A DNA stretch of 64,000 bases from Octopus vulgaris. Lineage: Eukaryota. The stretch lies in contig OX597814.1 in the NCBI GenBank assembly GCA_951406725.2, positions 48,112,001 to 48,176,000 of the forward strand, in the 5' to 3' direction. The translations under genes and the position numbers were made by a program. Shown piece after piece: positions 3,748 through 61,441 of this stretch. The notes beneath the pieces were generated by a model. It saw nothing but the letters and a program-made list of their open reading frames with translations. It had not been told where the DNA came from and searched no databases. The first letter of the stretch is position 1; each line of letters begins with the position of its first letter.

Positions 3748-3967
3748 CCCTTTAGCATTCAGATTATTCTGTTAAATATAATATTTATTTCTTCACATTC
3801 TTTTGAATTAATCATGTATTGTCTTGTAACTTTGAGATTTCAATGAAGCGATTGTTTGCTTTTAGTATGACAGTGTATGAGAGCTGTTAGAAACTGGATT
3901 TGGCCAATTTGAACATAAAACATGTAGAATATTTTAGCCGGATATGGCCGGTTTAAATGCTAAAGGG
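3748..3967. mobile_element. piggyBac-like MITE (~220 bp)
   Basis: TTAA|CCCTTTAGCATT ... AATGCTAAAGGG|TTAA: terminal inverted repeats with TTAA target-site duplication at 3744-3747 and 3968-3971. Confidence 0.85.
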
Positions 3968-5084: not shown

Positions 5085-8000
5085 TTACCGATCTTTTTCA
5101 TCTGATGTAGTGAAATAGTCCATAAACTGTTTATATGTGTGAGTTGAAGCATGCTCAAGAACTGTGAGTAAGTCAATCTTCTGTTCATGGTCTTGCTGTT
5201 CAATTTCTTTGACATCTGCAAACATATCAGCTTCTTTTCCCTTTCCATCATCTTCTTCCAGTACAATTAATGGAGGCATCTTTGACTTTAGCTCCTCTAC
5301 CACTGACATTAGTTGTGAAATTAGACCTGGCTCATCATCAGTTTTATCCTCACAAGTATCACCTTCACATGTGCTAGCCTCTTCTTCACTATCTGGGATG
5401 CCATCACCATCATCATCATCATCTAAATAGTCAGGGACACCATCGCCATCAGCATCTTCTTTATAGTCAGGTATACCATCACCATCAGAGTCTCCTTCCA
5501 AATCATCAGGGATACCATCCCCATCACTATCGGCATCTAAATGGTCAGGTATACCATCACCATCACCATCAGACTCTTCATCAGCATCAGGGATACCATC
5601 ACCATCATCATCATCATCAAGATAATCTGGAATGCCATCACCGTCAGTATCTAAGTCTACATCAGCATTATCAATTTCTTGGGCATCGGGAATACCATCA
5701 CCATCTGAATCAGGGTCTGCAAAATCAATGATACCATCACCATCTTTATCATCATCTAAAGTATCAGGAATACCGTCATTGTCATCATCTTCATCAATAT
5801 AATCAGGTATGCCATCACCATCAGTGTCCTTCAAATAATCTGGGATACCATCACCATCACTGTCTAATACCAAGTGATCTGGGATACCATCACCATCATC
5901 ATCATCATCAAGATAATCTGGAATACCATCACCATCAGCATCTTCTTTGTGGTCAGGGATACCATCGCCATCAGTATCTCCTTCTAAGTGATCAGGGATA
6001 CCATCACCATCAGCATCTTCCTTGTAGTCTGGGATACCATCACCATCACTGTCTCCCTCAAGATGGTCAGGGATACCATCACCATCATCATCATCATCAA
6101 GATAATCTGGGATGCCATCACCATCAGCATCCTCCTTGTAGTCTGGGATACCATCACCATCACTGTCCCCTTCAAGGTGGTCTGGAATACCATCACCATC
6201 ATCATCATCATCCAGATAATCTGGGATACCATCACCATCAGCATCTTCCTTGTAATCGGGGATACCATCACCGTCACTGTCCCCTTCAAGGTGGTCAGGG
6301 ATACCATCACCATCATCATCATCATCAAGATGATCTGGGATACCATCACCATCAGCATCCTCCTTGTAATCTGGGATACCATCACCATCACTGTCTCCCT
6401 CAAGATGGTCAGGGATTCCATCACCATCATCATCATCATCAAGATAATCTGGAATACCATCACCATCAGCATCTTCCTTGTAATCTGGGATACCATCACC
6501 ATCACTGTCTCCTTCCAAATGATCAGGGATACCATCACCATCATCATCATCATCAAGATAATCAGGAATACCATCACCATCAGCATCTTCCTTGTAGTCT
6601 GGGATACCATCGCCATCACTGTCTCCCTCAAGATGGTCAGGGATACCATCACCATCATCATCATCGTCAAGATAATCTGGGATACCATCACCATCGGCAT
6701 CTTCCTTGTAATCTGGGATACCATCACCATCACTGTCTCCCTCAAGATGGTCAGGGATTCCATCACCATCATCATCATCGTCCAGATAATCTGGGATACC
6801 ATCGCCATCAGCATCTTCCTTGTAATCTGGGATACCATCACCATCACTGTCCCCTTCGAGGTGGTCAGGGATACCATCACCATCATCATCATCATCCAGA
6901 TAATCTGGGATACCATCACCATCAGCATCTTCCTTGTAATCTGGGATACCATCACCATCACTGTCTCCTTCGAGGTGGTCAGGGATACCATCACCATCAT
7001 CATCATCATCAAGATAATCTGGAATACCATCACCATCAGCATCTTCCTTGTAATCTGGGATACCATCACCATCACTGTCCCCTTCGAGGTGGTCAGGGAT
7101 ACCATCACCATCATCATCATCGTCAAGATAATCTGGGATACCATCACCATCAGCATCTTCCTTGTAGTCTGGGATACCATCGCCATCACTGTCTCCTTCT
7201 AAGTGATCAGGGATACCATCACCATCATCATCATCGTCAAGATAATCTGGGATACCATCACCATCAGCATCTTCCTTATAATCTGGGATTCCATCACCAT
7301 CACTGTCTCCCTCAAGTGGTCAGGGATACCATCACCATCATCATCATCATCGAGATAATCTGGGATACCATCACCATCAGCATCTTCCTTGTAATCTGGG
7401 ATACCATCACCATCACTGTCTCCTTCTAAGAGGTGGTCAGGGATACCATCACCATCATCATCATCATCAAGATAATCTGGAATACCATCACCATCAGCAT
7501 CCTCCTTGTAGTCTGGGATACCATCACCATCACTATCTCCCTCGAGGTGGTCAGGGATACCATCACCATCATCATCATCATCAAGATAATCTGGGATACC
7601 ATCACCATCAGCATCTTCCTTGTAATCTGGGATACCATCACCATCACTGTCTCCCTCTAGGTGGTCAGGGATACCATCACCATCATCATCATCGTCAAGA
7701 TAATCTGGGATACCATCACCATCAGCATCTTCCTTGTAATCTGGAATACCATCACCATCACTGTCTCCCTCTAGGTGGTCAGGGATACCATCACCATCAT
7801 CATCATCGTCAAGATAATCTGGGATACCATCACCATCAGCATCTTCCTTGTAGTCTGGGATACCATCACCATCACTATCTCCCTCAAGGTGGTCAGGGAT
7901 ACCATCACCATCATCATCATCATCAAGATAATCTGGGATACCATCACCATCAGCATCTTCCTTGTAATCTGGGATACCATCACCATCACTGTCTCCCTCA

Positions 8001-11000
8001 AGGTGGTCAGGGATACCATCACCATCATCATCATCGTCAAGATAATCTGGGATACCATCACCATCAGCATCTTCCTTGTAGTCTGGGATACCGTCACCAT
8101 CACTGTCTCCTTCTAAGTGATCAGGGATACCATCACCATCATCATCATCATCCAGATAATCTGGGATGCCATCACCATCAGAATCTTCCTTGTAATCTGG
8201 GATACCATCACCATCACTGTCTCCCTCGAGGTGGTCAGGGATACCATCACCATCATCATCATCATCCAGATAATCTGGGATACCATCACCATCAGCATCT
8301 TCCTTGTAATCTGGGATTCCATCACCATCACTGTCTCCCTCAAGGTGGTCAGGGATACCATCACCATCATCATCATCATCAAGATAATCTGGGATACCAT
8401 CACCATCAGCATCTTCCTTGTAGTCTGGGATACCGTCACCATCACTGTCTCCTTCTAAGTGATCAGGGATACCATCACCATCATCATCATCATCCAGATA
8501 ATCTGGGATACCATCACCATCAGCATCTTCCTTGTAATCTGGGATACCATCACCATCACTGTCTCCCTCAAGGTGGTCAGGGATACCATCACCATCATCA
8601 TCATCATCAAGATAATCAGGAATACCATCACCATCAGCATCTTCCTTGTAATCTGGGATACCATCACCATCACTGTCTCCTTCTAAGTGATCAGGGATAC
8701 CATCACCATCATCATCATCGTCAAGATGATCTGGAATACCATCACCATCGGCATCTTCCTTGTAATCTGGGATACCATCACCATCACTGTCTCCCTCAAG
8801 GTGGTCAGGGATACCATCACCATCATCATCATCATCAAGATAATCTGGGATACCATCACCATCGGCATCTTCCTTGTAATCTGGGATACCATCACCATCA
8901 CTGTCTCCCTCTAGGTGGTCAGGGATACCATCACCATCATCATCATCGTCGAGATAATCTGGAATGCCATCACCATCAGCATCTTCCTTGTAATCTGGAA
9001 TGCCATCACCATCACTATCTCCCTCTAGGTGGTCAGGAATACCATCACCATCATCATCATTGTCAAGATAATCTGGGATACCATCACCATCAGCATCTTC
9101 CTTGTAATCTGGAATACCATCACCATCACTGTCTCCCTCAAGGTGGTCAGGGATACCATCACCATCATCATCATCGTCAAGATAGTCTGGGATGCCGTCA
9201 CCATCAGCATCTTCCTTGTAATCTGGGATCCCATCGCCATCACTATCTCCTTCTAAGTGATCAGGGATACCATCACCATCATCATCATCATCGAGATAAT
9301 CTGGTATACCATCCCCATCTGTATCCTTTTTGTAATCCATGATTTTATTGCCTTTTCTGTCTTTTTCTAACTTATCCGGTATACCATTACCATTCGCATC
9401 ACAGTCTAGATAATCTGGTATGCCATCACCATCTGTATCTTCTTTATAATCCAATATTCCATTACCATCTGAGTCAACTTCTAATTTATCAGGTATATTG
9501 TTTCCATTTGCATCATCATCGAGATAGTCTGGGATACCATCACCATCTGTATCTTTTCTTCGTGACGATGGCAGAATCTTACCATCAGCATTAATATCTG
9601 TATCTAGCTTGTCTGGAATACCATCACCATCACTGTCTATTTCTAAATGGTCAGGGATACCATCACCATCATCATCATCATCAAGATAATCTGGAATACC
9701 ATCACCATCAGCATCTTCCTTGTAATCTGGGATTCCATCACCATCACTATCTCCCTCGAGGTGGTCAGGAATGCCATCACCATCATCATCATTATCAAGA
9801 TGATCTGGGATGCCATCACCATCAGCATCTTCCTTGTAATCTGGAATTCCATCACCATCACTATCTCCCTCAAGGTGGTCAGGGATACCATCACCATCAT
9901 CATCATCATCGAGATAATCTGGGATACCATCACCATCAGCATCTTCCTTGTAATCTGGAATTCCATCACCGTCACTATCTCCCTCAAGGTGGTCAGGGAT
10001 ACCATCACCATCATCATCATCATCAAGATAATCTGGGATACCATCACCATCAGCATCTTCCTTGTAATCTGGGATACCATCACCATCACTGTCTCCCTCG
10101 AGGTGATCAGGGATTCCATCACCATCATCATCATCATCCAGATAATCTGGGATACCATCACCATCAGCGTCTTCCTTGTAATCTGGAATACCATCACCAT
10201 CACTGTCTCCCTCTAGGTGGTCAGGAATGCCATCTCCATCATCATCATTATCGAGATGATCTGGGATACCATCACCATCAGCATCCTCCTTGTAATCTGG
10301 GATCCCATCGCCATCACTGTCTCCCTCGAGGTGGTCAGGGATACCATCACCATCATCATCATCGTCAAGATAATCTGGGATACCATCACCATCAGCATCT
10401 TCCTTGTAATCTGGAATACCATCACCATCACTGTCTCCCTCTAGGTGGTCAGGAATGCCATCTCCATCATCATCATTATCGAGATGATCTGGGATACCAT
10501 CACCATCAGCATCCTCCTTGTAATCTGGGATCCCATCACCATCACTGTCTCCCTCTAGGTGGTCAGGGATACCATCACCATCATCATCATCGTCAAGATA
10601 ATCTGGGATACCATCACCATCAGCATCTTCCTTGTAATCTGGGATACCATCACCATCACTGTCTCCCTCGAGGTGGTCAGGGATACCATCACCATCATCA
10701 TCATCGTCTAGGTAATCTGGGATACCATCACCATCAGCATCTTCCTTGTAATCTGGGATACCATCACCGTCACTGTCTCCCTCTAGGTGGTCAGGAATAC
10801 CATCACCATCATCATCATTATCGAGATGATCTGGGATACCATCACCATCAGCATCTTCCTTGTAATCTGGAATACCATCACCATCACTATCTCCCTCTAG
10901 GTGGTCAGGGATACCATCACCATCATCATCATCATCAAGATAATCTGGGATACCATCACCATCAGCATCTTCCTTGTAATCTGGGATTCCATCACCATCA

Positions 11001-13927
11001 CTGTCTCCCTCGAGGTGGTCAGGGATACCATCACCATCATCATCATCATCGAGATAATCTGGGATACCATCACCATCAGCATCTTCTTTATAGTCCGGGA
11101 TACCATCACCATCACTGTCTCCCTCGAGGTGGTCAGGGATACCATCACCATCATCATCATCATCCAGATAATCTGGAATACCATCACCATCAGCATCTTC
11201 CTTGTAATCTGGGATTCCATCACCATCGCTGTCTCCCTCAAGGTGGTCAGGGATACCATCACCATCATCATCATTATCGAGATGATCTGGGATACCATCA
11301 CCATCAGCATCTTCCTTGTAATCTGGAATACCATCACCATCACTATCTCCCTCTAGGTGGTCAGGGATACCATCACCATCATCATCATCATCCAGATAAT
11401 CTGGGATACCATCACCATCAGCATCTTCCTTGTAATCTGGAATACCATCACCGTCACTATCTCCCTCTAGGTGGTCAGGTATACCATCACCATCTTTGTC
11501 ACCTTCCAAATGGTCAGGAATACCATCACCATCATCATCATCGTCAAGATAATCTGGAATACCATCACCATCAGCATCTTCTTTATAGTCCGGGATACCA
11601 TCACCATCACTGTCTCCCTCGAGGTGGTCAGGTATACCATCACCATCATCATCATCGTCAAGATAATCTGGAATACCATCACCATCAGCATCTTCCTTAT
11701 AGTCAGGGATACCATCACCATCACTGTCGCCCTCAAGATGGTCTGGAATGCCATCACCATCATCATCATCATCGAGATAATCTGGTATACCGTCACCATC
11801 AGCATCTTCCTTGTAATCTGGAATACCATCACCATCACTGTCTCCCTCGAGGTGGTCAGGGATACCATCACCATCATCATCATTATCCAGATAATCTGGG
11901 ATACCATCACCATCAGCATCTTCCTTATAATCTGGGATACCATCACCATCACTATCTCCCTCAAGGTGGTCAGGGATACCATCACCATCATCATCATCAT
12001 CGAGATAATCTGGGATACCATCACCATCAGCATCTTCCTTGTAATCTGGGATACCATCACCATCACTGTCTCCTTCTAAGTGATCAGGGATACCATCACC
12101 ATCTTTGTCAACTTCTAAATGGTCAGGGATACCATCACCATCATCATCATCATCAAGATAATCTGGGATACCATCGCCATCAGCATCTTCTTTATAGTCC
12201 GGGATTCCATCACCATCACTGTCTCCCTCGAGGTGATCAGGTATACCATCACCATCATCATCATCATCAAGATAATCTGGGATACCATCACCATCAGCAT
12301 CTTCCTTGTAATCGGGGATACCATCACCGTCACTGTCTCCCTCGAGGTGATCAGGAATGCCATCACCATCATCATCGTCATCAAGATAATCTGGGATACC
12401 ATCACCATCAGCATCTTCCTTGTAATCTGGGATGCCATCACCATCACTGTCTCCCTCGAGGTGATCAGGAATGCCATCACCATCATCATCGTCATCAAGA
12501 TAATCTGGGATACCATCACCATCAGCGTCTTCCTTGTAATCTGGAATACCATCACCATCACTGTCTCCCTCTAAGTGGTCAGGAATGCCATCACCATCAT
12601 CATCATTATCAAGATGATCTGGGATACCATCACCATCAGCATCTTCCTTGTAATCGGGAATACCATCACCATCACTATCTCCCTCGAGGTGGTCCGGTAT
12701 ACCATCACCATCATCATCATCATCCAGATAATCGGGGATACCATCGCCATCAGCATCTTCCTTATAATCTGGAATACCATCACCATCACTGTCTCCCTCT
12801 AGGTGGTCAGGGATACCATCACCATCATCATCATCATCAAGATAATCTGGGATACCATCACCATCAGCATCCTCCTTGTAATCTGGTATACCATCACCAT
12901 CACTGTCTCCTTCTAGGTGGTCAGGGATACCATCACCATCATCGTCATCATCGAGATGGTCTGGGATACCATCACCATCAGCGTCTTCTTTGTAATCTGG
13001 GATTCCATCACCATCACTGTCTCCTTCTAGGTGGTCAGGAATACCATCACCATCATCATCATCATCAAGATAATCTGGGATACCATCACCATCAGCATCT
13101 TCTTTGTAGTCTGGGATACCGTCACCATCACTGTCTCCTTCTAAGTGATCAGGGATACCATCACCATCATCATCATCATCCAGATAATCTGGGATACCAT
13201 CACCATCAGCATCTTCCTTGTAATCTGGTATACCATCGCCGTCACTATCTCCCTCAAGATGGTCAGGGATACCATCACCATCATCGTCATCATCCAGATA
13301 ATCTGGGATACCATCACCATCAGCATCTTCCTTGTAATCTGGGATCCCATCACCATCACTGTCTCCCTCAAGGTGGTCAGGGATACCATCACCATCATCA
13401 TCATCGTCAAGATAATCTGGGATGCCATCACCATCAGCATCTTCCTTATAATCTGGAATACCATCACCATCACTGTCTCCCTCTAGGTGGTCAGGGATAC
13501 CATCACCATCATCATCATTGTCGAGATAATCTGGGATACCATCACCATCAGCATCTTCCTTGTAATCTGGGATACCATCACCATCACTGTCTCCCTCTAG
13601 GTGGTCAGGGATACCATCACCATCATCATCATCGTCGAGATAATCTGGAATGCCATCACCATCAGCATCTTCCTTATAATCTGGAATACCATCACCATCA
13701 CTGTCTCCCTCTAGGTGGTCAGGGATTCCATCACCATCATCATCATCATCAAGATAATCTGGGATACCATCACCATCAGCATCTTCCTTGTAATCTGGGA
13801 TACCGTCACCATCACTGTCTCTCTTTAGGTGGTTAGGGATACCGTGTCCACCACTGTCCTTCTTCAGTTTTGCAGAGCTGGTTTTCGCATCAATCGAAAG
13901 TATTTTTCTTTTACAAAATGTGCAGAC
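5085..13927 (-). CDS. Giant terminal exon of an Asp-rich DxDGDGIPD (thrombospondin type-3-like / DxDxDG) repeat protein, ~2,947 aa in this exon; 1-bp frameshift near 7316; upstream exon(s) not identified
   Basis: Splice acceptor ttttctttttttctttttaag|GTC at 13928/13927 opens [40 protein letters not shown]..., in frame with ORF 7199..11509 (13927-11509=806 codons). After a 1-bp deletion at ~7316 it continues in the frame of ORF 5085..6518 to ...[11 protein letters not shown] (5085-5087). Restoring the base gives 8844 nt = 2948 codons. Differences between units are mostly at third codon positions. Confidence 0.82.
5400..13830 (-). repeat. Coding tandem array, 114-bp (38-aa) unit made of three 39/36/39-bp sub-repeats
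   Basis: Unit [38 protein letters not shown] read directly from the ORF track. Roughly 65-70 units, degenerate at the C-terminal end (5400-5990) and in a central block (~9300-9645). Extra 39-bp [11 protein letters not shown] sub-units near 11470-11510 and 12080-12120. Confidence 0.95.
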
Positions 13928-15544
13928 CTTAAAAAGAAAAAAAGAAAATATCTTACTATATTTGTAATATGGATTTTTATACTAAATCATTTTTTTTTTT
14001 TTTTTTTCTTAATGTGGTGCAAGATGTACTGAAATGTTACAGCTTTTGTTTTGGGAAGTTGAAGGTTTATATTTGATTCCTGTGCAATACTGCACATGCA
14101 GTAAATTTTGATAGTGAAATTTTGAAACCTGTTTGTATCAAATGAACTGCATCTAAAATTCAAAGGATCAACCTCTATATACATATTGACACACAATTTG
14201 TATGATTATTATGTTAGGCCAAAAACATCTGAATCATACTTGACAACTTATACAATTCCTTTTATGAAATAGCTTGAACAATCATCTGTGGAATTAATGT
14301 GATCCATCATTATGTATTTTATTGTATCTATTTACATGTTTACATATTTTATAATATCCTATTTAAATTATATTTATTGTCATAGTCTGTTGTTGCTTTC
14401 AACTTCAATATATGTTAACATTTGCTTAAGGTATTCCAGCCATGACCATCTCATCTTTTTGAAGTCTCTAGAACTACATTATTTGATAATATGCAATGTT
14501 TTTTCTCAAGACAGAAGAGTGATGTTTGACTGATATTTGGTTTTTATTTTTAGTAGGTCTGGCAGCTACGAAGATGCTCCCCATGATTTATGTTTATTGT
14601 TTGATAAGGTGGTGTAATGGAAGAAATCAAAATTCAGGAATTACCTTATTAGATTTCATTATCATATATTGTTTAAATTCACTGAATTCACCTATGTCTT
14701 TCAACTTGGGACTGATAAAATAAGTACCAGTCATTTATTAGGGTTAATTCTATTTGTCATACAATTTTCTCCTAAAAGGTACATGACATTGCAGGAATCA
14801 TGTCATTATTAGCTTTGCTATCATTGTCATGATTATTATTATTGATGGGCTGGCAGAATTGTTATTATGCTGGGCAAAATGCTAAGCAGCACTTTGTCCA
14901 TCTTTGTGTTCTGAGTTCAAATTCTGCTCTGCTTTTCATTCTTTTGGGGTCAATAAATTAAGTACTTGTGAAACACTGGGGTTGACATGATCAGCTAGTC
15001 TCCTCTGCCAAAATTTCAGGCTTTGTGCTTTCAGTAGAAAGGGCTATTATTATTATTATTATTGTTATTATTATTATTGGTGAGCTGGCAGAATTGTTAG
15101 CATGCTGGGCAAAATGCTTAGTGGCGTTTCACCCATCATTATGTTCTAACTTCAAATTCCAACAGGGTTGTCTTTGCCTTTCTTCATTTTGGGGTCAATA
15201 AAAAATAAGTACTGGTTGTGCAATGGGGTTGATACAATCAACTTATCTCCTCTCCTGAACTGACCAACCTTGTGCTAAAATTTGAAATCATTATTGTTGT
15301 TGTTGTTGTTGTTATTATTAGTGAGAATGCATGAGTGCAATAATTTTCTCATTCTCTTTGTATACTCTCTGCTGGTGATTTGTTTCATTTCTTCATGTTT
15401 TATTTCATCTGCTTTCAGTATCCCCAAATACTTATATCACTGTCCTTTCTCAACCTCTTTTATTGTTTGCCCATTTGGCATTTCAATACCCTACCTTCCT
15501 TCAAATCTTACTCATTTCATTTTCAACATAGTGTACATATCCAT

Positions 15545-17000: not shown

Positions 17001-17007
17001 GCAGCAG

Positions 17008-17054
<47 letters not shown>

Positions 17055-17230
17055 TTTTTTTTTTTTCTTTCAAATTTGCTTCCATTTCTTGACGAGTGTC
17101 TTCCCGACTCCTAGGGCAAAGAAACTCATAGTATACATTGGTAGGCCATTAAACTAAACTCAATAATTTGTTCATTTTTTTTTTTTAAGTTAAATTAAAA
17201 TACATGGGTAGTAATAGTTCTTTATTATTA

Positions 17231-17284
<54 letters not shown>

Positions 17285-17329: not shown

Positions 17330-17374
<45 letters not shown>

Positions 17375-43073: not shown

Positions 43074-43100
43074 TTATAATTCATCTGAATGATGGGATAC
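43074..43100 (-). CDS. HSP90B1: HSP90B1 last coding exon (VSHHSDEL*)
   Basis: attttatcag|GTA TCC CAT CAT TCA GAT GAA TTA TAA; xDEL ER-retrieval ending. Confidence 0.88.
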   Translation of the reverse strand, partial: VSHHSDEL

Positions 43101-46100
43101 CTGATAAAATGAAAAGTAATATAACGTTATAAACACAGAATCCCCTGCCAACCAGTACTGTGTGCCTCTCTGCCAGGTTTGTGTGTGCACACTAGGAAAG
43201 CCTAACAAAAGAGTTAGTGGAAGTGTCAAAACACACCATGCTTAATATGTATATATTATATAATCAAACAGCTATTAGTCAAGTTGTCTACAGACTACTT
43301 AGAGTATTTCTATAACTTCAGAAATCTACTGATGCTATATCTATAAGGTTAACCCTTTTGTTACCATATTTCCCTGCCTCATGTGTTTTAATTATATTAA
43401 TCAAATTTAGGCTCACCATGTGAAGCATATACAAGTGTCTTGAACACAAAAGATTCTTCCCTAAGCCAATTATGGAATTTGTCTTACAATTACTGATTAC
43501 AAATACAGTTAAATTTCAAATACAGCTATTTAAATTTTATTTAAATATCAATAAGGTATTAGCCAATATAGCTTACTAAATGCTCTGCATTTATTGCAAA
43601 TATGCCATGTGTTTGTTCAATTTGTCCCATTTCCTATGCTTACATTTTACATCATAATCAGTCATTGCCATTATATGGAACACTTAAATTGAATACACAG
43701 TCAACAGGTTTCCAGCCATGAGGATAACTGACTGGCTTCAGTTTCTAAAAATTTTGGAAGCTAAATATTTACATTTTCTTTCTCTTCATAGAAATTATTG
43801 CTTGACATTATTTACACATTCAGGAATTGAAACATTTGGTTTAATGACTAATTTTTAAATATTTACTGCATTTGAAAATCATTTCAAATTCAGAGGTATT
43901 ATTACTAAATCTGAGGTTTTATATAGTAAGGGGGTGGGGGCAGAGCATAAAAAGAAAAGGAAAAGTATTAACATATCCTAACAAGTTACTTATGCTGAAA
44001 ATGTTGGAGTGTGTACAGCATGTTTATTTAGTGAAATCCTACTGTGAATATAGCAATATTTGTTGATATTTTAACATGAAAAAAATGGGTGGTATTGGGT
44101 GGGTTGGTAACAAAAGGGTTACATACAAGAGCAGGAACAAAATTCCTTCAGTGGTATTAACACTTAAATGCTGTAGACAATTATAAACAAGAGGAACAAC
44201 AATTTTGCCCTTCAATTTTGAAAGGTGAAGAGCACACACACAAAGGCAAAAGCAGCAACACAATAACTGGAAGATTAAAAATTCATACTATTGTCACAGA
44301 ATTCATGCAAATTACATCATCATGCAAATAATTTGTAAAGTTGAGCATGCTATGGTATTGTCAAGCAAACAATCTAGTCAAAGAAAGCATGGTAACAATT
44401 ATCTTTGAATTGGGGAAAACAATGACAATCTGGATCTTAATGTAGAGAAAGTACTTTTATCATTTATTAGCATCTACACTTATGTTTTGCAAAATATGGA
44501 TAAAATTTTTAAAAGATGAGAGAAAGGAAACATACATGTAAAAGAAATTGATAACTGAGTTTTACTGCAGAATATACAGATTGGAGCCGTACATAATAAG
44601 GAAAGTAACTTTAATCATATTAATTTCAGAAATTTCTAAGTTGAACTGTCTTTGTATTTGGTAGACAATCAATTCAATATTGTTTATTTTTTAAAAATAA
44701 ACTGCTAAAATTTAAGATACGATCTATATGTTTGAGTGACAATGTAAAAACTAATTTGGTCAATCACTAAAATCCATGCAAATTTATGATATAACCACAA
44801 AACTTTTGTGTAAAAAATTATCAATTAGGAATTATCGTCATTGTTTAACGCCCACTTTCCATGCTAGCATGAGTTTGACTGAGGGCTGGCAAGCCAGAAG
44901 GCTGCACCAGGCTCCAATCTAATTTGGCAAAGTTTCTACAACTGGATACCCTTCCTAATGCCAACCACTGAGAGTGTAGTGGGTGCTTTTTACATGTCAC
45001 CAGCATGAGGGCATTGACCATGCTTGAATGGGGCTTTTTACGTGCCACCGGAACAGGGGAATGTAATTGATAAAATCCAATGTTCGAGAGATCAAGAGAA
45101 AACTGAATTATATAGTTTCTGTTCTCTCTCTATTGCAACATAACATGTATTTTTGAACTACTTAATTGTAGTAGGTTCTTTCAGTTAAAAAGTGCCTGTT
45201 CCTCATAACTACACAAATTTACAATGTCAATATTTGCCCCATATATATTGGGATGCAAGGTCAATTTTCATAAATACAGTAAACATTGCTCAACATTCAA
45301 AAAGATGGAGCTGGAACTGATCAGTAAGGGTATTTCTATATTGAAATGAGTTAAAAATTTCATTTATTCCAGTCACCGTTGCAATAAAAGTAAACCTTTA
45401 TATCATAATTGTGTGCATGCATACATATATAACTGGACAAAAGCATGGCTAAGTGGTTAATAAGCTCATTTAGCAACCATGAGGTTCATGAGAGAGCCTA
45501 CTGTGCAGTGTCTTGAACTTCACTATAGCTTTGTGATGTCCCAAGCCTTGCAAGTGAAATTAGATAATGAAAAGCCTGTTGGAGAGGCTGTGCCTGCATT
45601 TCAAAAAATCAGTCTCATACTGACTTTTTTACTTGAGAATTGTGAAGGGTACATGCTTGTGGAATACCCAACCACTTCCCATGCTAATTCAATAATTGTT
45701 CAGTTGATTGTTCCATCAGTTGCAATACAATACACAGTTGTTCAATTATATATAATCATCACTGTTAACCATAAAAATACAAGGGGAATCCAGGCAAATT
45801 AAATGACCTGGAAAAAAAAAACTGGCAATCAATTTTGTCATGAAAAATATATTTACGGAGTTTACTTACTTTTTCTTCCTTTTCATCTGTTTCACTTGCA
45901 TCAGCATCAACCTTTTCTTCCTGTTCTACTTGCTCCTCTTGTTCTTCAGGTTCTTCCTCAACCTAAAACATTTCAGTTAAAAATCTTATTTCCTAATGCC
46001 AAGTAATTAAACTAGGGTGTTATAAGAGTATGATAGAAATGGGGATTTAAGTGGATGCATGTCATTTGTGAATATCCATTTGGAGGGGAAGAGGAGATTT

Positions 46101-49100: not shown

Positions 49101-52100
49101 ATAGATAGAGGGAGAAGAGATGTGTATGATTAGAAAGAGGAGATAGGTCAAATCAAAAACAGGAAGAGAGAATGGGAGAGAAAAGAGAAGCAAAAGGACC
49201 TCTTCCTTTTGCTTCTTCTATTTACTGTCTTGGTTTTTTTTTTTTTTTTTAAATCTCATTCTAAGAATTTATATATACATATGATTATAGAGGTGCAAAC
49301 AGTAATATTTTGAAAAGAGTTTAATATTCAATTTTATATGTGTGTCTTAAATTGATAAATATAACATACATAAAAATTTGCAATTTTGACATTAAACAAC
49401 GATTTGTTTTGATTAAAATATCAGGTACCGCAGAGCTAAACTTCTCACTATAACTCACCTGCATTTAGCACCCCTTACTATCTCTCATCCCATCTGTTTT
49501 GCCAGCATAATCAGAATGTGAAACGCATTGCATTTTATTACAGATTTTTATATATAGATATCAAATACATACATACAAATGCGTGTTTGCTTACATTTGC
49601 ATGTGATGAAAGACTAGCTATGTACGAGTGGTGGTAGTGTTAGGTATGTAAACAAATTGTCCGCTAACTTCACATCTTCAAAGATGTGTGAAATACAGGT
49701 AAGAATTAACAGGGAGGGTATGTCTGTAAAACAGGGTTTCAATATATTTTTCTAACCTATGCTAACATGGAAAAACAAATGGAACAAGAGAACGATTCAT
49801 AAACATGCGAGTTAAATGAACTTACCATATCTTCACCGTCAATATTCAAACTCAATCGAAGCATTCTCTCTACTCTACCAGCAAAACCAGCAGTATCAGG
49901 AACTAAATAACCTGATCTCATAGTTGCTGTTTCAAAAAGTATGACAGCTAGATCTTTGGCTGTTGGATCATCTTTATTACTCTGAAAATAAAGAGAAGTG
50001 AATGCATTGAATGTGGTTAAATAAAGGAAGTTTAGGAGAAGGGACAACTGTTGAAATGACTGGGTCTTAATGTGATTTGCATGGTAATTGCAACTGATGT
50101 GAACTGTAGTGTTGTACAATCTATACAAAGAGCGTGTATGACAAAATAGTAAATGTACAGCAAAAAGAGCTAGAATGAAGAAATTGAGCCCTAAAAACAT
50201 GGATCCAAATAGTGAATGCAGCAGCAACATTGTAGGACTGATTTTGTATCCATAATTTTGTGTTTTATGCAATATATAGGTTGGATGAAAATATTTGAAT
50301 TCAAATCTTATTGAAGAATAGCCATAAGTGTTAGGATGACTCACTAAAAGTTGCTATAACAGCCTCTACTTGTTTCATAACTCACTTTAGCTTACACCAC
50401 TTGTTACTATCAAGCTGAGATGAATAGAACAGGCTAAATAAAATATTGTGTTAACCTTCATTCATACTTTTATCACCAACTTGCATGGGGATAGGCCATT
50501 TAACAAAATTTGCATCAATTCTTATTGGCATTACAGCTATTTTAGATGTGTCAGAAGATCATGTCTCATTCAAGACATCTATTGTGGCATGGTTTCTACA
50601 GCTGGTTTCCTTAACTCAAACCACTTTACAGAGTATACTGGGTGATTTAAATTTTTATTGTTGTACCACCAGCACTGGAATGACACTCATACCCTCGGTG
50701 AGACTAAAGGAGTCTGCAAAGTAAAATTTAACATCTTGCACACATTTTAACTTTAATACAAATAAACTTACCTCAACTTTTTCTTTCAACATTTTGATAA
50801 GCTTGTGTCTGGGATTTATTTCAAGTGTTCTTTTCTGGTTAGCAAAATAGCTGGAAAAAAAATTCTCATATTGAAATAAATGTTAATTAGATATTTAAAA
50901 TAGCTACACTTATTGTTGCCTCAAGTAATTATAACAGGCTAGTAGCAGTATAATGCATAAGTATACTTCTTAAATCAAAGCTGACTAGTCTGGATACGTT
51001 CCAGGTTGTAATCATTTCAAAAACACTAAATGTCTAAAGGAAAACACTAACGTAAGTTCTCATTTCTCACTCAAATTATTAAATTTATATTCATTATGTT
51101 TGATACCTCTCTTTACAAAACCTCAAATAGATGGCTCCCACACTTGCATGAAATATCTGATTGATCATGAGATATATATTAGTGTCAAAGAACTAAAGAT
51201 ATTTAAGGTTTAGATTGTATTTAATACAACTGAAAACTGAAACAAAGGACACTAAAAATATTTGCTAAGTAATTTATAAAAGTGCCAATTTAAAATCCTT
51301 TTGCAACTTACTCCTGTGATGAATCTTTAGCTTTGGCATAGGCTTGGGCTCTCATAATTCTTTCCATGTTGCCAGACCAACCATATTGACTAGCAATCAA
51401 GGCACACGGGGAGGAAGACAATCTTTCAGAAACTGTAGCTTTTTCAATCTGACAAAGAAAAAATAGGAGTCAAAATACCTTAAAAAGAAAGCTCTTATAT
51501 ATAAGCTAAATTATTTTGAAAATATTTCAAAAAGATTTTCAACATTATAGGTGCAGGTGTGGCTGTGTGGTAAGAAGCTTGCCTCCCAACTGCATAAAGG
51601 CAGTGAGCTGGCAGAAATGTTAGCATGCCGGGTGAAATGCTTAGCTGTATTTCATTTGCCGTTACGTTCTGAGTTCAAATTCAACCAAGGTCGACTTTGC
51701 CTTTCATCCTTTTGGGGTCGATTAAATAAGTACCGGTTATGCACTGGGGTCAATGCAATCAACTTAATCTCTTTGTATGTCTTTGTTTGTCCCCTCTATG
51801 TTTAGCGCCATGTGGGCAATAAAGGAATAAGAACTGCATGGTTCTAGGTTCAGTCCCACTGGATGGCACCTTGAGCAAATGTCTACTATAGCTGACCAAA
51901 GCCTTATGAGTGGATTTGGTCGATGGAAATTAAATGAAACCCGTTGTGTATATAGTAATAATAATCCATGGATGGAATTTATAAATATTTATCCTAAATT
52001 ATATCAGCACAGCTTGGTGAGACCCTAAAAAACTGGTACTGCCATTTAGTATCATTAGGCTGAAGCTGGTATAATAAAATAGTTTTTGTGTTTCCCGTAA

Positions 52101-55100
52101 ATGAACTTAAAGGAAATATATACATATATGCATAATGAGAGTGTGTGTATGTATTTGTTCCTCTACCACTGCTTGACAACCACTGTTGTGTCCCTGTAAC
52201 TTATTGTTTGAGCAAAAATAGTCCAATAGAATAAACATAAGGCTTTAAAAAAGCAAAATAAGTACTGGTGCTGAGTGCCCCAGCATGGCTGCATTCTGAT
52301 GACTGAATCCATTAAACCATTCCCTATATTTCCCTATGAGAAGAAAGTCCAAAATTTTAGATAAAAATTTACCTGATTGCTCAATGCATCATCTTTCAAC
52401 CATTTCAGTAGGGGTTCATATTCTTTTTCTAAACTTTCTTTCTTTTCCTTAGCATTTTCAGAATCAGAAAGAGATAAACCTTCTTTGGCAACGTTTTGGA
52501 ATTTTTTGCCTTCAAATTCTGGTAAAGCTTGAATGCAGTATTCATCAACAGGCTCTATTAGATAGAGTACTTCATAACCTTTCTTAAGTAGTCGCTCCAC
52601 AAAAGGTGAATTTTTCACCTGAAACAAAAATAGGTTGTTCAATTTTCATATCAAAACTTTAGGTATTTTTTCATCCTGTATTCACGTTTGTAGATAACTA
52701 TGACAGAATATTTGATTCAAACAATAAAAGAACCAGCAGACTTTTCTAGATTGCATCAATGATTTCACACAAACGACAGAGTTAAATGAATCTGGCCTTT
52801 ACATATTTTAAACAATTTAAATATTGTTCATCAGAAAGAAAGAAAAAAAAAGCTAAGCTCTAATATGTATATTTCTAACTAAAAGATTAAATGAGATTTA
52901 GCAGAAATTTAATGATTTATCAGAGTTTTTCAGCAAGACAATGGTATGTGCAAATACATTAAGTTAAGAAATACCTTTGTGGAATTCTATGTACAAATCA
53001 AAGTTAGAGTATTTATACAAAACTAATATGTAGTTTGCTTGCTTTCATAGCAACAACAGATTATAACAGGATATGCTGCTGTCAAGTGAATGCAATATGA
53101 CTAGTTTGCCACAACATTGCCTAGTTGAGTGAAAAGCCTCAACAGAATCACTTGCTAGAAACAGCAGAAGAAATTTTATATCCCTTTTATTGCAGGTGTA
53201 GTTGATCAGGAATAACCTAAGATTAGGCAACAATGTTGTGTGCACTACTTATATTAGACAAAAATATAGAACATTGAATTAACACCTAAGTATACCAAGA
53301 GTGAGGGGTGAGATTAAGTCCTCTGCAAATGAAATTATTTTCCATGCCAGCAAGGAAGGCAGGTATAGAAATACAATAAGAAAAGTCTTTTGTTTCATTG
53401 AGAACTCAACCCTTTTGTTACCACACTATTTCTAATGAAATGCACTGCTTGCATTTTAATTTTGAAAAGAATTTGGAGAAATTTAATAAAATAGTCTTTT
53501 CATTAAGCTGATGTCTAAAACAAATTGAAAGATAGATGGTTGCAATATAAATATGAACACTTCAAATTGACAATTTTCTTTTTTATTGTGGTCAGTTTCA
53601 AGGATATTGGCATCTAAACAGTTAATTCTTATAATCCCAAAGAAATTGATCATATCAAAAATCTTTGTCCATTATCTCCCACCATTTATATATCAAATCT
53701 TCATGCATACATTTAAATAATAATAATAAAGGTTTTCCTTACCTCCTTCTGTGATGTTCCAGCCACAAAATAAATAGCTGTTTGTTTTTCTTTCATTCTT
53801 TCCACATATTCAGCTAAACTTGTTTGTTCAGTTTCAGAATTGGAAGAATAAAATCGTAGAAGTTTAGCAAGTCTAGTCCTGTTAGATGGATCTTCAATCA
53901 CTCCAAGCTTGATGCTAAAAAGGTTTATGGTAAATTGTGTATAACAAAATATAAAACATTTCATAAACTATGTATAAATATGTAACCAAAACTATTAAAA
54001 GTAATTCTACTATAATCCTCAACAGCAATCAAATTATATGATAACACCAACATCTTTTGCTATTTTTATTGAGTGTTCCTGCTTCTCTCAATCATGAGAA
54101 TGGCAGAATAAAATTTAAAAAAAAACAGGTCAATTGTAAATTGATCAAGTTTTACTGCCATGGCCTTTTCTAGGAGCAATATCAGTATCAACATGATGAT
54201 TAACTAAGAGAAAGCAGTTCTGATTGGAAAAAGAGAGAGGAAAGTAGTCAGTCATTCCACCAGAGGTTTTGAAAGTACATAGATGCACAAATATTAAAAG
54301 TAGGTGCATAGGAAGGCTGACAGACACAAATGGAGAAGAATTTGAAGTGTGCAAGCAGAAAACCATTATTTAAAGATATTATGAGATAGTGGAGGTTCTG
54401 CAAAAAATGCATTCTCGAAAACATAAAATGTCTTTGCAATATTCATATTCATATTGTTCAGTTATATTTAACATTTTGTCCATTTAGTGCTAATGGTCTA
54501 TACAGATTTCCTTCTCTCTTAAACTGAACCTTTGGGTAAGTAGAGAGAAACCTAACAGCTGAAATACCCATAAAACTTGTGCTAGTCTAGGATAAGTTGT
54601 CCTGTCAACCACCTTTTCCCATCTACCATAGACATCTTCATACCCAGCAACTACAACCTGCCACTAAAGAGCTGGGAAAATAGGCTTCTTGCTGCAACAG
54701 ATTTACTTCATGTAAGTCTATTTGTAAAACTTTGCCAAAAACTGAGATGTCTAAGCATTAATAACTCCATCCAGGGGAGATGGGTGCCTTCACACGTCAC
54801 ATGCAACCTCTGTAGTACTGGTAGCATGATTTTAGGGTACTTTAGTGTTTTATACTTCTTAAACTTATGAAAACATAGTATCTAGGCAGATAATTGTGAA
54901 AATCTGACATATTGGCTTACTTTGTGCTGTATTCTTTCCAGAAGCTTGCAAATTCCTCTTTGTCAATTTTCTTAATCATGTCCAATGTCTTACGAACAAG
55001 TTTTTTTTTGATGACTTTAAGAAGTTTATGCTGTTGTAAAGTTTCTCGTGATACATTCAATGGGAGATCATCTGAGTCGACCTGTAACAAAGAAGTCACA

Positions 55101-58100
55101 ATTTCTAGACAAAAGGAAAAAAAAGAACCATTTAGTATTCATCATTTAGCGTCTGTTGTCCATGCTAGTATGGGTTGGATGATTTGACCAGGGCTGGCAA
55201 GCTGCACCAGACCCCAGTCTGATTTGGCATGGTTTCTACAGCTGGATGCCCTTCCTAATGCCAACCACTCCGAGAGGGTAATGGGTGCTTTTATGTGCCA
55301 CGAGTATCTGCCATGACTGCAATTATACTTGGCTTGATGAGTCTTCTCCAGCACGACAATACCAAAGGTCTTGGTCATTACCTCTGAGGAGCCCAACACT
55401 CAAAAGAAGCTTTTCATGTGCCATCAGCATTGGACACTTTGCCTCTGTGAGGCCTAACGTGCCAGTTACACAATACCAGCATCAGCCACAACTATAATTT
55501 CACTTGGCTTGACAGGTCTTATCAAGCACAGAATATCACCAAAGGTCTCAGTCACTAGTCATTGCCTCTGTGAGGACCAAAGTTCAGAGATCATGCTTCA
55601 CCACCTTGTGCCACATTTTTCTAGGTCTACTTCTACTACAGGGTCTCTCTATAGTTAGAGATCACTTCTTTACACAGCTGTCTTTGTCCATACATATCAC
55701 ATGACCATACCAGCACAGTCGTCTATCTTGCACACCACATCTGATGCCTCTTATGCCCAACCTTTCTCTCAAGACGCTTACACTGTCAAACATGCACACT
55801 TACTTAGCACATCCAGTGAAATATACTGGCTTCATTTCTTTCAAGCCTATGCATGTCCTTGGCTGTCACAGCCCATGTTTCACTGCAGTGTAGCATAGCT
55901 GTTCACATACAGGCATCATACAATCTGCCTTATACTGAGGGAGAGGCCCTTTGTTGCCAGCTGAGGTAGGAGCTCTCTAAGCTTTGCCCAACCTATTCTT
56001 ATTCTTACAACTATGCTCTTGGAACATCTATCTTTGCTACTAACTTGGTCACCTAGATAACGGAAGCTATCTACTACCACTAGCTTACCCGGCTGACAGC
56101 CGAGTCTATTTTCTGTACATTTTCAGTGTTTATTTTACCTATACATCTTCCACACACAAAAGCTATTTTCCCTGTTAACCTTCTGATAATTACTGCACCT
56201 CTTATATGTCCAAAGCTTACACTGGGTACATCTTATGGAGTTTCTACCTACACACACCTTCTCTACAGATTGAGCAGGGCCATCTACCAGAAGGGATTTG
56301 TGATTGTCTGCCTTCCTTGCTCACTGTTTTTTTGCTAGGTTAACTCTAAGGCCCTTCGATTCTAGACCTTGTTTCCATACTTGAAACTTCTTTAGTTCTG
56401 TTAGTGATTCAGCTGTAAGAACAAGGTCATCAGTATAGAAGAGCTCCCAGGGGCAGCCTATCTTAAATTCCTCTGTTATTGCCTAGAGGACTATGATGAA
56501 CATGGGGTCTGAGGACCAATCCTTGGTGAACCCATCTTGTATCCTGAATTCTTTGCCAACCCTCATTGCACTGGTAGCATTCCTGTACATGGCTTGTATG
56601 GCTCTCACCAACCACTCATCTATCCCTAGTTTCTGCATTGACCACCAGATAAGGTATTGGGGGACCCTGTCAAAGGCTTTCTCCAAGTCAACAAAAGCCA
56701 GGTACAAAGGTTTATCTTTGGTTATGTATTTCTCCTGCAGCCGCTTTACCAGAAATATAGCTTCAGTGGCGATTCTCCCTTGCACAAAACCAAATTGCAT
56801 CTCATCAAGACTCTCCCGCATTAATTGGGCTATGACCTCTTCATAACTTTCATCACCTAATCCAGCAATTTGATACCTCTATAATTATTTCTATCTAAGG
56901 CATTACCTTTACCTTTGTAGCAGCTGCTACTACACCAGTCACTGGGTACGACTCCTTTGTGAACCACCTGATTTACAATATGGGTGACTGATTTACAATA
57001 TTTTAAGCATCTCAGTGGTGATTCTTGATGGGTGGGCTGGGGGATTTCCCTGTCTTCATATCCTTAATTGCTTTATCTACCAAGGTACTGTTGGTTCAGA
57101 TAGCTGGTTCCTCAACTGGGCCAACATTTGGCAAACTCTCCTCCTCCCACTCATTCTCCATGTTCAGCAGTCTTTCATAATTGCATTTCCAAGCCTCTTT
57201 CTTTGCAGAATCATTAAATGCAAGTGCGCTATCATTCATGCAGACACTTAAATGAAATTAATGAAAAGGAGTAAAATATTTAGTGTTGATTAATGAAAAA
57301 AAATAAATACACTTACCACTCCTGAGACAAAGTTTAAGTATTTTGGCATCATATCTTCAAAATCATCAGTAATGAAAACTCGACGAACATACATCTATTC
57401 AAAAAAAAAGTTTTAAAAGATTAATCAGGTATATGAATAAATGCACAACATGCATATATACAAACGGTTTGAAAAAGAATTTAAACTTACCTTAATACGG
57501 TCAGCTTTCTTTCCATAATTGTTGAAAGTATCACTTGGAGAAACTTTGGGCACATATAAGATGGATTTAAATGTGACTTCACCTTCTGCAGTGAAATGAA
57601 TTTTAGCCATGGGTGGAGTGAAATCAGAGCTAATAGACTTGTAAAAGGCATTATATTCATCATCAGTTATTTCATTGGGTCTGAAATTTAAAAAATACAA
57701 AATCTGTAGAAACTACTACATTTTTTCTAACATTAAAAACAGCGAATTAAAAAGATACTCACTTTCTAGTCCAGATGGGTTTTACACTATTTAGTAATTC
57801 CCAGTCCCATGTAGTTTTTTCAACAGTTTTTGTTTTTGGTTTTTCTTCCTTTTCTTCTTCAACTTTACCCTCCTCTTCTTCATCTTCCTCTTTTTCTTCA
57901 GCTGGCTTCTCCTCTTCATCTTCAACTGGTTCTTCAACTTTCTCTGTCTATAATACAATTACATTGACAGTATTTTACAATTCAGGAAGGCTAAAGGCAT
58001 CATTCAATTTTTGTATGGAAAAAAATTAATATAAAATTAAACATTAAAAATTTGTGTACCTTGCTGGTCCAAAGGTAAATGTTGAAATTGATGAACTGGC

Positions 58101-61100
58101 TGTATTTCTTAATTAGGTCTTTCAATGTATTTTCTTCAAGATAATCATGAGCTTCTTCTTTCAGATGCAAGCTAAACAAAATTTAAAAATACCATTACAT
58201 TTGTGTTACTGAAAACATCTTTGTAACAGATTCAAAAATATATATTATATTCAGCTGATTCATTGTAAGAATGAATAAGTGTGGGTTAGAGAAAGCCCAT
58301 CAATGTACATTGTAATGAAGTAGTCTGACAGAAAACTCATCCAAGAGATGAAAGTTGAATAGAACTCACTGATGTACAATTGAGTATCAAATCTCAAGCC
58401 AGACACTATGCTTTGCTGGTCTCAATGGCAATATCATTGCTAAAGTGTAACTGTACAGGAATTTCATGAATTGTCAGTGTGAAAGGAAAGAGATGAAGTG
58501 ATGGAAGGTAATTTTTCAAAGCTGTTTTTATCATCTTTGCGAATTTGAATACAAAGCAATATGACTATAGCTACAAGGGTCCAGTGAAGTTGCTCTTCTC
58601 CAAAATGGAACATTGTTAGAAGTTTCCATGAGATAAACTTAAAGAAAACTACTAAGTGAGGCCAACAACACTAACAAACAAAAAAAAAAGTTTTACTGAC
58701 TGAAAAATTTATAGAAGTTCTTAAATTCTGAAAAGAGAAAAGCTCTTCTCAGAAGAGAAAATCTATCTCATAAAACAAGATACTTGATACTTAGTTACAA
58801 GAGACTTTACATTCAAGAAGCTATAATGGAATTAAAAATGAAATAACATTAAAGAGAGAGAACAAAAAAAAAAAAATTTTTTACAAACACCAGAAGTTGC
58901 ACGCTCCAGACAAAATGAAAACTATAAAATAGAAAGGAATTAATTATACTGGACATACCTAATAGTAGTTCCTCGAGCAAGAGTAGTGCCACGTGGATCT
59001 TTTGATACTTGGAAAGAGTCTGAATCAGATTCCCAAATATATTGGTCATCGTCATTATGCTTGGAAGTAACCATTACTTTGTCGGCAACTGAAATCAAAT
59101 TTAAATGGTTTTGATACATATATGAATTTCAATTTCTTTAAACATTTTAGTACAGTAAAATTTAAGCTTTAGTCATTTTAAACAGAGACAAGACCAAATA
59201 TTTTGGATGGAAGGTTTATTTAATAAAATCAATCAATAAAATCAATCACAGTAACTGACCAGCACTTTATCAACCCAAGAAGGATGAAAGATGAAGCTGG
59301 GCTTTGATTTGAACTTGGAACATAAAGATAAATATTGCAAAGTAATATTTCTGCTATCACAGCCCTTGCATAAATTACCATGGTTTCTTTAACCTTTTTT
59401 GATATCAGCCTGTTGGAGATTGCTTCAGTTGTTATGATACAAAATTAGTGTTTTAAAGTATTCATATAAATTGGTTGATTAGTTAATGAGGGACTGTAAC
59501 AAGTGGCAAGACTAGTGAAACAGGTCTGGCCAACCCATACCAACATCGAAAAATGTGTAGAATGGCATGTAGTAGGAATTTTAAATATAAATGATAATAT
59601 CCTATGTTAAAATAAACTACATATGCCTGTTTATTAGGGCCTAACTTTCTTAGTTTTAAATTAGATTCATTACCATCATTTAACATCCACTTTCCATGTT
59701 GGCATGGGTTGGATGGTTTGACTGAGTGCTGGCAAGCCAGAAGGCTGCACCAGGCTCCAATCCGATCTGGCAAAGTTTCTACTACTGGATGCCCTTCCTA
59801 ACGCCAACCACACCAAGAGTGTAGTGGGTACTTTTTACGTGTTACCAGCATGAGAGCCAGTCATGTGGCACTGGCATTGACCATGCTCGAATGGTGCTTT
59901 TTATGTGCCACTGGCATGGGAGTCAGTCAGGTGGCACTGGCAGTGATCACGCTTGTATGGTGCTTTTTACGTGCCACTGGCACAAATTAAAATGATATAT
60001 TCAGAGGAGAAGAAATTATGTAAAGAGTGTGAAGACATTTTTAGTAAATTACATTTTTCAACTCTAGAGTTAAATTACACATATAATAGACTTTGAGATA
60101 AGATTTGGAGAAATCATTAACTTCATACCACTAGAACTAAGATAACAGCAGTTTTTCAACATGGATAGACATATCTAGTATGTAAGAAGGAATTATGTCA
60201 TTATGTTGACATATTTAGATTCTTAGTGGCTAGGTAGGATCAATATGTTTTTTTGGACGCATATAAAAAACACGAGTTATGTCAGTGAAATGAGAAAGAT
60301 TGTCTAAAAAGATACGAGAGCAAAAGGTGTGTTGGGAGTAAAAGTTAAGTTTTTAATCAGCTACTCAGCATAAGCAGAACTGTACCCATGACACCTAGAC
60401 TGTCAAGAGACTTATGTGGTTGTTTAGTTTGAACAGTTGTCTTTCAATGGCAAAGACGCAAGTGCTTGCAGTGATTGGTATCAGATTAGTTAGCAAAAGG
60501 AGATAAAGACAAGAGGAAGTAGTCATGCTGGAGTAGATGGTATCCAGTTACTAATCCAGAGAACTAGAGGCTACTATAATAATGAAGGAAGAGAGTAAAT
60601 GATTTGGTGAATATTTGCCTCAAGTGACCTGCTTTTGGGCATGGCTCTAGAGTGTTTCTTGCGACGCATAGCTTAGTTCTTACGAAGCAAACCCATGATT
60701 AAAAGCTTTCCAATTCTAACTATTGCCATTTCGTCTTTCAAAGTTTACATTTGAAAGAAATTTGGGTATAATTTTTTTTGCAAGTTTAGTAATCATATAC
60801 AGGATACGGCTAATTAGATGTGCATGAGAGCAGCTGCATTATATCAGACATGTGAACAGTTCTTTAGTATGACTTGAGGTTTATAGAGATCAATTGATCA
60901 AAGCTGAAGTAATTTTTGGCCCTGAAAATGAAGCTTAAATTTGAGGATGCAGTTTTTGGCAATTTTGTAAGTGAGAAAGCCATTAGATTTGAGGTTGATA
61001 TTTTGTATTGCATTGACATGGTTTATGAAACTTCTTTTGATGCATATAATGAATGCCTCTCGGTGCTGTTGAAGTAACTATTTCTTTTTTATGTCCACAT

Positions 61101-61386
61101 TGAAAGACGTATTTGAAGTCTGTTCATAGCAATATGTGCGTGAAGTGAGGTGTCCATGTTGCTTGTTAATGACATTGGTGTCATGTTGAGGGAGATTAAA
61201 GGGTGAATTATATACATTAAAATGGGAGTTAGAACTAAACTGCTAGCAAAGCATAGGTGAAAGACAGGAATAGTGAAGGAGAAGGCTCAATATTGGGGCT
61301 GCACCACAATTTATAAAATATGGGCCTAAGTGGCCCTTCAACACATGCCATAATAATGGAAGTTTGATAAAGAAATGCTAACCATA

Positions 61387-61441
<55 letters not shown>

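Follow-up and report, generated by a model that had tools for sequence, protein, structure and literature searches.

An octopus GRP94 gene with a likely alternative last exon encoding a giant tail of Ca2+-loop repeats

We analyzed a 64,000-nucleotide stretch of Octopus vulgaris DNA (GCA_951406725.2, contig OX597814.1, positions 48,112,001 to 48,176,000), here called the window; coordinates are window positions unless another contig is named. The window comes from a genome of 2.8 Gb, is AT-rich, and carries microsatellites. On its minus strand lie the greater part of a gene for the endoplasmic reticulum (ER) chaperone GRP94 and, downstream of it, a stretch of about 2,946 codons made up mostly of TSP3-like DxDGDGIPD repeats (Table 1). 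A first-pass annotation of the window had taken the repeat stretch for a single-exon gene encoding a lineage-specific, stand-alone protein. Our analysis overturned this: the stretch is very likely a last exon of GRP94, and the same fusion is present in gene models from a snail and 17 trematode species.

The repeat array has a Tandem Repeats Finder period of 114 nt and 71.1 copies (score 8758), and each 38-aa unit holds three DxDGDGIPD loops at 13-12-13 aa spacing. We read the same unit composition as the first-pass annotation (15 Asp, 2 Glu, 7 Gly, and 1 Lys), and its figure of more than 200 motifs agrees with the 214 D.DGDG[IV]PD motifs that we counted. The tail contains 1,100 Asp (37%) and has a net charge of about -1,155. 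The description of the protein as TSP3-like, nearly Cys-free, and very acidic held as well: there are 5 Cys in 2,946 aa, and in the Pfam scan that had been proposed, TSP_3 (PF02412, 118.9 bits) and TSP3_bac (PF18884, 192.7 bits) both passed the cut-off of 25, with no other family matched in the three exon pieces scanned. The loops share the DxDxDG[IV]xD pattern of thrombospondin/COMP and of the bacterial TSP3 repeats, and they weakly matched COMP (3fby) and BamM (9n2d). Unlike those of thrombospondin and COMP, however, the octopus repeats have no structural Cys and no accompanying EGF or lectin domains, amount to 214 loops, and are predicted to be joined to an ER chaperone. The repeat protein is not a thrombospondin. 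A genome search with PF02412 gave one match, on contig C2 near 206.38 Mb, which may be a true thrombospondin; this search was insensitive, as the repeat-exon locus itself went unreported. A second repeat match on contig C2 was rejected as an unrelated tandem repeat.

Variation among the units bears on whether the array is translated. Among 62 canonical units, 61 differ at the DNA level and 6 at the protein level. Measured against the majority codon, the differences are 294 synonymous versus 21 nonsynonymous, with none at second codon positions; each unit offers about 23 synonymous and about 91 nonsynonymous sites. Thus, the array is translated coding sequence under purifying selection, and a neutral minisatellite is excluded. 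Structure prediction added little: AlphaFold2, run on the last 301 aa without an alignment, gave a mean pLDDT of 46 and a pTM of 0.17, too poor for fold comparison, and ESM Atlas matches stayed below 0.9 for both queries tried.

No Met precedes the repeats. Their frame opens directly at a phase-0 AG acceptor at 13927, which has the highest pyrimidine content among 15 acceptors compared. Therefore, the repeat stretch is a terminal exon and not, as had been claimed, a single-exon gene. Upstream on the same strand we assembled a model of 17 exons and 786 codons that is free of stops and has GT-AG introns throughout. Four of its exons lie beyond the window end, in the neighboring stretch; they include the first exon, which is hydrophobic, in frame, and judged by eye to encode a signal peptide. 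The model matches PF00183. Its identity is 72.5% with Lymnaea GRP94 and 67.6% with a snake endoplasmin, compared with 46.7% for a bird HSP90-beta. Since the core is nearer to endoplasmin than to HSP90-beta, the sequence identifies the host gene as GRP94 (HSP90B1, endoplasmin). An HSP90 search of the genome returned this locus, one place on contig C13, and two on contig C25; the latter are separate HSP90 loci near 16.88 Mb and 19.98 Mb.

The model can end in two ways. With the short canonical last exon it gives a 794-aa protein carrying a KDEL-type retrieval signal, SDEL. Splicing from the donor at 45870 to the acceptor at 13927 would instead remove a 31,942-nt intron, in phase 0 on both sides, and would give a predicted long isoform of about 3,733 aa and 400 kDa (31% Asp) whose last residues, EKDR, form no retrieval signal. 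The Lymnaea protein CAL1526239.1 follows the same path: its residues 8 to 759 map on the GRP94 exons and its residue 804 maps on 13924, in colinear order. This compatibility of splice phase, together with the homology of the junction, makes it likely that GRP94 uses the repeat exon as an alternative last exon. The octopus gene thus shares with GRP94/HSP90B1 a signal peptide, a full HSP90 core, an acidic C-terminal stretch, and, in its short isoform, SDEL. It differs in that a second last exon would swap the retention tag for a CxxC motif, a site of predicted protease cleavage, and Ca2+-loop repeats spanning about 2,940 aa.

We found related fusions by searching from both sides. With the first 150 aa of the exon as the query, which contain no HSP90 sequence, the top 5 of 120 listed matches were trematode HSP90-domain proteins of 2,845 to 3,259 aa, and the remaining listed matches were bacterial or unnamed; cluster members added Paragonimus kellicotti and Clonorchis. 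The reverse search, with the GRP94 core against proteins of 914 to 2,909 aa, found 269 proteins. Of the 120 that were listed, 15 showed repeats or a CxxC-basic motif, and 13 of these were trematode or Lymnaea GRP94 carrying a repeat tail. The other two were dropped: the hemichordate Glandiceps talaboti XP_077985225.1 has a CxxC after GRP94 and no repeats, and the second has 2 motifs and a KDEL end. XP_077985225.1 continues after its CxxC into an EGF-rich region, which we take to resemble CRELD, and ends in HKEL. No non-spiralian long HSP90 protein among the matches listed has such a tail. Altogether, 17 trematode species and one snail, Lymnaea, have gene models with the GRP94-repeat fusion.

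The junctions agree closely. In Lymnaea CAL1526239.1 the acidic GRP94 end runs into CAFCNRKLMSAD, which closely resembles the opening of the octopus exon. Schistosoma mansoni has both a short form (AAF66929.1, 796 aa) and a long form (XP_018651354.1, 2,126 aa) from the same gene, identical over their first 785 residues and divergent thereafter; its long isoforms Smp_030300.3 and.4 are labelled "putative thrombospondin" in the available part of the PMC4723143 supplement. KAG5444747.1 is another trematode long endoplasmin model. Like the octopus exon, the trematode and Lymnaea forms have the same fusion point, a CxxC with R[RK][LI][LM], DGDGIPD repeats, and no KDEL. The fluke tails differ in being irregular, with 23 to 36% Asp, a long linker, and two motifs, whereas the octopus tail is a homogenized triplet with 37% Asp and one motif. 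For S. rodhaini, numerous long isoforms (1,691 to 2,617 aa) are annotated, which suggests more alternative splicing inside the fluke tail. A peptide of the same repeat type, from an earthworm hydrolysate, was assigned to Owenia Ofus.G011730 (available part of PMC11547318).

Between the chaperone and the first repeat lies a motif that we predict to be a cleavage site for site-1 protease (SKI-1/S1P). The pattern R[RK][LIV][LMF] is found at this position in 18/18 homologues, as RKLM, RRLL, RKLL, or RRLF, with two copies in each of the 17 flukes. Elsewhere it occurs at most once per homologous long protein and nowhere else in the octopus tail. Shuffled linkers contained it in 0.5 to 6% of trials, and the shuffled octopus exon start in 0.3%. 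These sequences are related, so the motif counts for about three independent lineages, octopus included. The adjacent CxxC is CAFC in Lymnaea and CPTC or CSTC in most flukes; Calicophoron has lost it and still has the junction motif twice. The SKI-1/S1P consensus is R-X-aliphatic-Z, with RRLL optimal and cuttable in the ER and RKLM a documented site; the protease is active in the Golgi apparatus (available part of PMC8310232). Cleavage in the octopus protein would leave, by computation, a 796-aa GRP94 part ending in CxxC and the motif, and a tail of about 2,937 aa and 309 kDa with 37.5% Asp.

From these data we propose that a GRP94 isoform conserved in spiralians delivers a luminal Ca2+ buffer of high capacity, which is probably freed by cleavage. 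We give this reading roughly a two-in-three chance. It builds on what is established: the exon, its acceptor and phases, the intact 17-exon frame with signal peptide, the SDEL exon, selection on the array, and the fusion and motif in models of 18 species. In some cells the transcript would, with high probability, leave out the SDEL exon together with its poly(A) site, being spliced to 13927 instead. The long protein would enter the ER through the GRP94 signal peptide. There, the 214 loops would be very strongly expected to bind Ca2+, in the hundreds and at low affinity, because Dx[DN]xDG motifs do so in thrombospondin (available part of PMC3123361). SKI-1/S1P would then, at slightly better than even odds, cleave the protein on the C-terminal side of RKIL, either in the ER or in the cis-Golgi compartment, and release the tail of about 2,940 aa. 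Self-association or the C-terminal helix would retain the tail; before cleavage, dimerization with the SDEL isoform would do so.

The tail would serve as a luminal Ca2+ store, and we tentatively place this store in the muscle sarcoplasmic reticulum (SR), where it would resemble vertebrate calsequestrin. Muscle SR is preferred because muscle is common to cephalopod, snail, and flukes, because calsequestrin is patchily distributed among animals (available part of PMC7016017), and because a 450-kDa Ca2+-binding protein, MCBP-450, has been reported from membranes of mussel muscle. A bolder version, which we regard as doubtful, has the spiralian GRP94 gene also encode the precursor of the principal Ca2+ store of muscle, which would do the job of calsequestrin in molluscs and flatworms and possibly be MCBP-450 itself. 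Calsequestrin and HRC are SR Ca2+ stores of vertebrates. If the proposed reading holds, the octopus tail shares with them an acidic, luminal, high-capacity character; it has no sequence relation to them, the exon pieces giving no match to the thioredoxin-fold calsequestrin domain PF01216, and it would be encoded as a chaperone isoform. A genome search for PF01216 gave no matches, but it had no positive control, and we did not use it as evidence. MCBP-450 is likewise a very large Ca2+-binding molluscan muscle protein of the membrane fraction, reported from Mytilus smooth muscle, and serves here as a lead only (available part of PMC7589332).

Several observations weigh against this proposal. The S1P consensus comprises few residues and tolerates many sequences. 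Secretion is as compatible as ER retention with a long form that has lost KDEL and carries a protease site of Golgi type. The best amphipathic C-terminal helix scores 0.44 in octopus versus 0.60 to 0.75 in complete fluke tails. A search with the unique 101-aa C-terminus, which the first-pass annotation had recommended, yielded no homologue among 172 candidates; against 1.84 billion representatives it gave 3 matches (E 1e-5 to 5e-5), all unrelated acidic repeat proteins. The homologues are all gene models, in a list where HSP90-neighbor fusions are frequent and read-through annotation is common, and the 18 of them represent about two independent lineages besides octopus. MCBP-450, which we compared by description only, binds about 38 Ca2+ per molecule and lies at the inner cell membrane (available part of PMC7589332). 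In the present assembly the reading frame of the exon is broken. None of the joints, loose ends, or pieces listed for 13790-29700, a region that ends short of the GRP94 exons, falls at 13927. In addition, none of the listed sequencing runs containing the 3' end is recorded as RNA, although 14 were guessed to be.

The protein data also count on this side. For the long isoform in the S. mansoni miracidium proteome, 19/20 peptides are common to the isoforms, 0/20 contain DGIPD, and the sole tail peptide has a low score and one spectrum; two shared peptides that we mapped both fall within the GRP94 core (PMC4723143 supplement, rows 1 to 62 of 203, among them every PEAKS peptide row). Within that portion, the miracidium proteome gives no protein-level support for the tail.

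On the favorable side, the C-terminus and 265 nt of 3' untranslated region occur in 20 of the 24 listed runs, from 10 studies and five organisms, 19 with at least half of the sequence words. Four runs mapped on 13790-29700 show zero depth in two intron bins, as RNA would give, and cover the bin that holds the exon start, a bin that also contains a T-run. The contigs mapped on this region are mostly dispersed repeats. The splice from 45870 to 13927 is thus inferred from phase and homology.

We considered whether the same splice might produce a long form that stays uncut in the ER or SR, as GRP94 with a giant Ca2+-binding tail, retained by dimerizing with the SDEL isoform, the junction motif having some other role. 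In favor, GRP94 is a dimeric, Ca2+-binding ER protein. MCBP-450, reported from the membrane fraction of mussel smooth muscle, has 450 kDa (available part of PMC7589332); the uncut isoform computes to 400 kDa. However, the same source gives MCBP-450 only about 38 Ca2+ per molecule and locates it on the cytoplasmic side of the cell membrane. The junction motif, moreover, is kept in 18/18 homologues, is doubled in flukes, and outlasts the CxxC. We consider an uncut store unlikely.

Alternatively, cleavage could be followed by secretion. The tail would then bind mineral or contribute to mucus as an acidic protein, either extracellularly or within granules, for example in statoliths, calcareous corpuscles, or a gland secretion. 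A tail with 37% Asp and no KDEL-type end would suit this role, as would a protease that works in the Golgi apparatus (available part of PMC8310232). Flukes have calcareous excretory bodies, and cephalopods have statoliths. Yet the 3' end appears in runs of 10 studies, which does not suggest a product specific to a tiny organ, although the tissue labels are coded, and the most elaborate forms belong to the shell-free flukes. No such protein was found in the available parts of the mollusc literature on endoplasmin and aspartic acid-rich proteins. A secreted tail is in our judgment very unlikely. The first-pass annotation had offered a high-capacity Ca2+ binder for ER/SR or secretory-granule storage, mineral templating, or gland secretion. 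Ca2+ binding with ER/SR storage stands as the most plausible of its options. Statolith or shell templating becomes a weaker one, since the most elaborate versions occur in flukes, which to our knowledge have neither statoliths nor a shell.

Another possibility is a gene distinct from GRP94 that comprises the repeat exon and a small signal-peptide exon lying between 14 and 43 kb; the database fusions would then be read-through of conserved neighbors. The missing joint at 13927 and the frequency of HSP90 models fused to neighbors would agree with this, and a signal peptide, a short propeptide, and RXXL form the normal layout of a secreted protein. However, of 38 ATG-to-donor candidates between the SDEL-side and repeat exons, 5 are hydrophobic and only 1 of these is in phase 0, and it is microsatellite-derived. 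In the fluke and snail fusions the tail takes the position of the KDEL exon, with one common joining point, and the S. mansoni short and long forms share one 785-aa prefix. Judged from sequence, the fixed junction replacing the KDEL exon, the junction motif, and the missing start codon set the octopus case apart from read-through, and a separate gene appears decidedly improbable. A stretch at 34535-34465 had been tried as a signal-peptide exon and was ruled out by its wrong phase and the lack of a proper AG context.

Finally, the broken frame must be accounted for. The first-pass annotation had described one continuous exon frame, but a base is missing at 7314-7316, which splits the exon into frames of 2,260 aa (stop to stop) and 744 aa, and a degenerate block at about 9650-9300 also interrupts the array. 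Past the frameshift, 10 units show 43 synonymous versus 1 nonsynonymous difference, and the frame stays open for 742 codons into the intact unique C-terminus. These features suggest that the frameshift is, in all probability, an assembly error. The lost base and an extra Leu codon, one unit ahead of it, both fall on the most variable codons of the unit, a pattern that mis-polishing of a tandem array would give. A real frameshift, truncating the long form at 7202 in this animal or marking a decaying exon, has the missing base itself in its favor, but the synonymous excess, the open frame beyond the break, and the placement of both anomalies make it scarcely credible.

The component parts of this system are known, and their combination stands in databases without comment. 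The available part of a 2022 survey of S. mansoni heat shock proteins calls the gene endoplasmin precursor-like and contains neither "thrombospondin" nor "aspart" (PMC9559072). In the literature searched, whose coverage mostly leaves aside subscription journals, we found no description of a long GRP94 isoform. If our proposal is true, an ER chaperone that is among the most conserved and most thoroughly studied has an isoform 4 to 5 times its usual size that is common to molluscs and flatworms, which would surprise chaperone and calcium biologists. The tail would be a candidate for luminal Ca2+ buffering in both groups, would give the 450-kDa mussel muscle protein an identity that can be tested, and might represent a new class of S1P substrate with a whole chaperone as prodomain. 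In flukes, where praziquantel action rests on muscle Ca2+ handling, it would be an exon, overlooked so far and absent from the host, of a gene already known.

Table 1. Features of the GRP94 locus and the repeat exon (window positions)
Feature	Position	Strand	Remark
Internal GRP94/endoplasmin exons (12)	49826..62481	minus	HSP90 similarity, gene model
Penultimate GRP94 exon (exon 17), acidic, phase-0 donor	45870..45962	minus	donor usable by both last exons
Short canonical last exon, SDEL and stop	43074..43100	minus	AATAAA at 42813
Polypyrimidine tract and AG acceptor, phase 0	13928..13950	minus	17/18 pyrimidines
Likely GRP94 long terminal exon, coding part	13927-5085	minus	about 2,946 aa; stop codon 5085-5087
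CxxC motif, CTFC	13913..13924	minus	exon start
RKIL, predicted SKI-1/S1P cleavage motif	13898..13909	minus	R-X-aliphatic-Z consensus
TSP3-like DxDGDGIPD array	5411..13843	minus	unit 114 nt / 38 aa
Degenerate internal repeat block, basic inserts and one Cys	~9300..9650 (limits approximate)	minus	breaks array
Extra Leu codon, one unit ahead of frameshift	7427..7432	minus	same variable unit position
One-base loss, frame shifted	7314-7316	minus	probably assembly or polishing error
Unique C-terminus, 101 aa, single genome copy, no KDEL-type end	5088..5390	minus	
Moderately amphipathic helix in unique C-terminus	~5283-5324	minus	
Candidate AATAAA poly(A) signal of long isoform	3784..3789	minus	from sequence

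Some further observations were made along the way. Among the 120 listed long HSP90 proteins, 22 are fish endoplasmins of about 1,050 to 1,270 aa; all have a cNMP-binding domain and most an RIIa domain as well. They represent a genuine teleost fusion or else a read-through model that recurs. Eight listed HSP90 models, mostly bird HSP90-beta, are fused to the nucleoside transporter PF01733, probably by read-through. Within the window, a GRP94 intron contains an RVT_1 reverse-transcriptase fragment (56486-56878, minus), and the intron before the penultimate exon carries a near-identical duplicate of about 200 bp (~47020-47230 and 48265-48480). A short frame at 24645-25022 (minus) has no Pfam match and presumably resembles a Tc1/mariner-type transposase remnant. 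A minisatellite of 31/124 bp occupies 36994-37820, and arrays at 29962-30194 and 59827-59982 have a common 66-bp unit. About 6 kb before the window start lies a 30-bp tandem repeat in which several frames are open for 250 to 350 codons.

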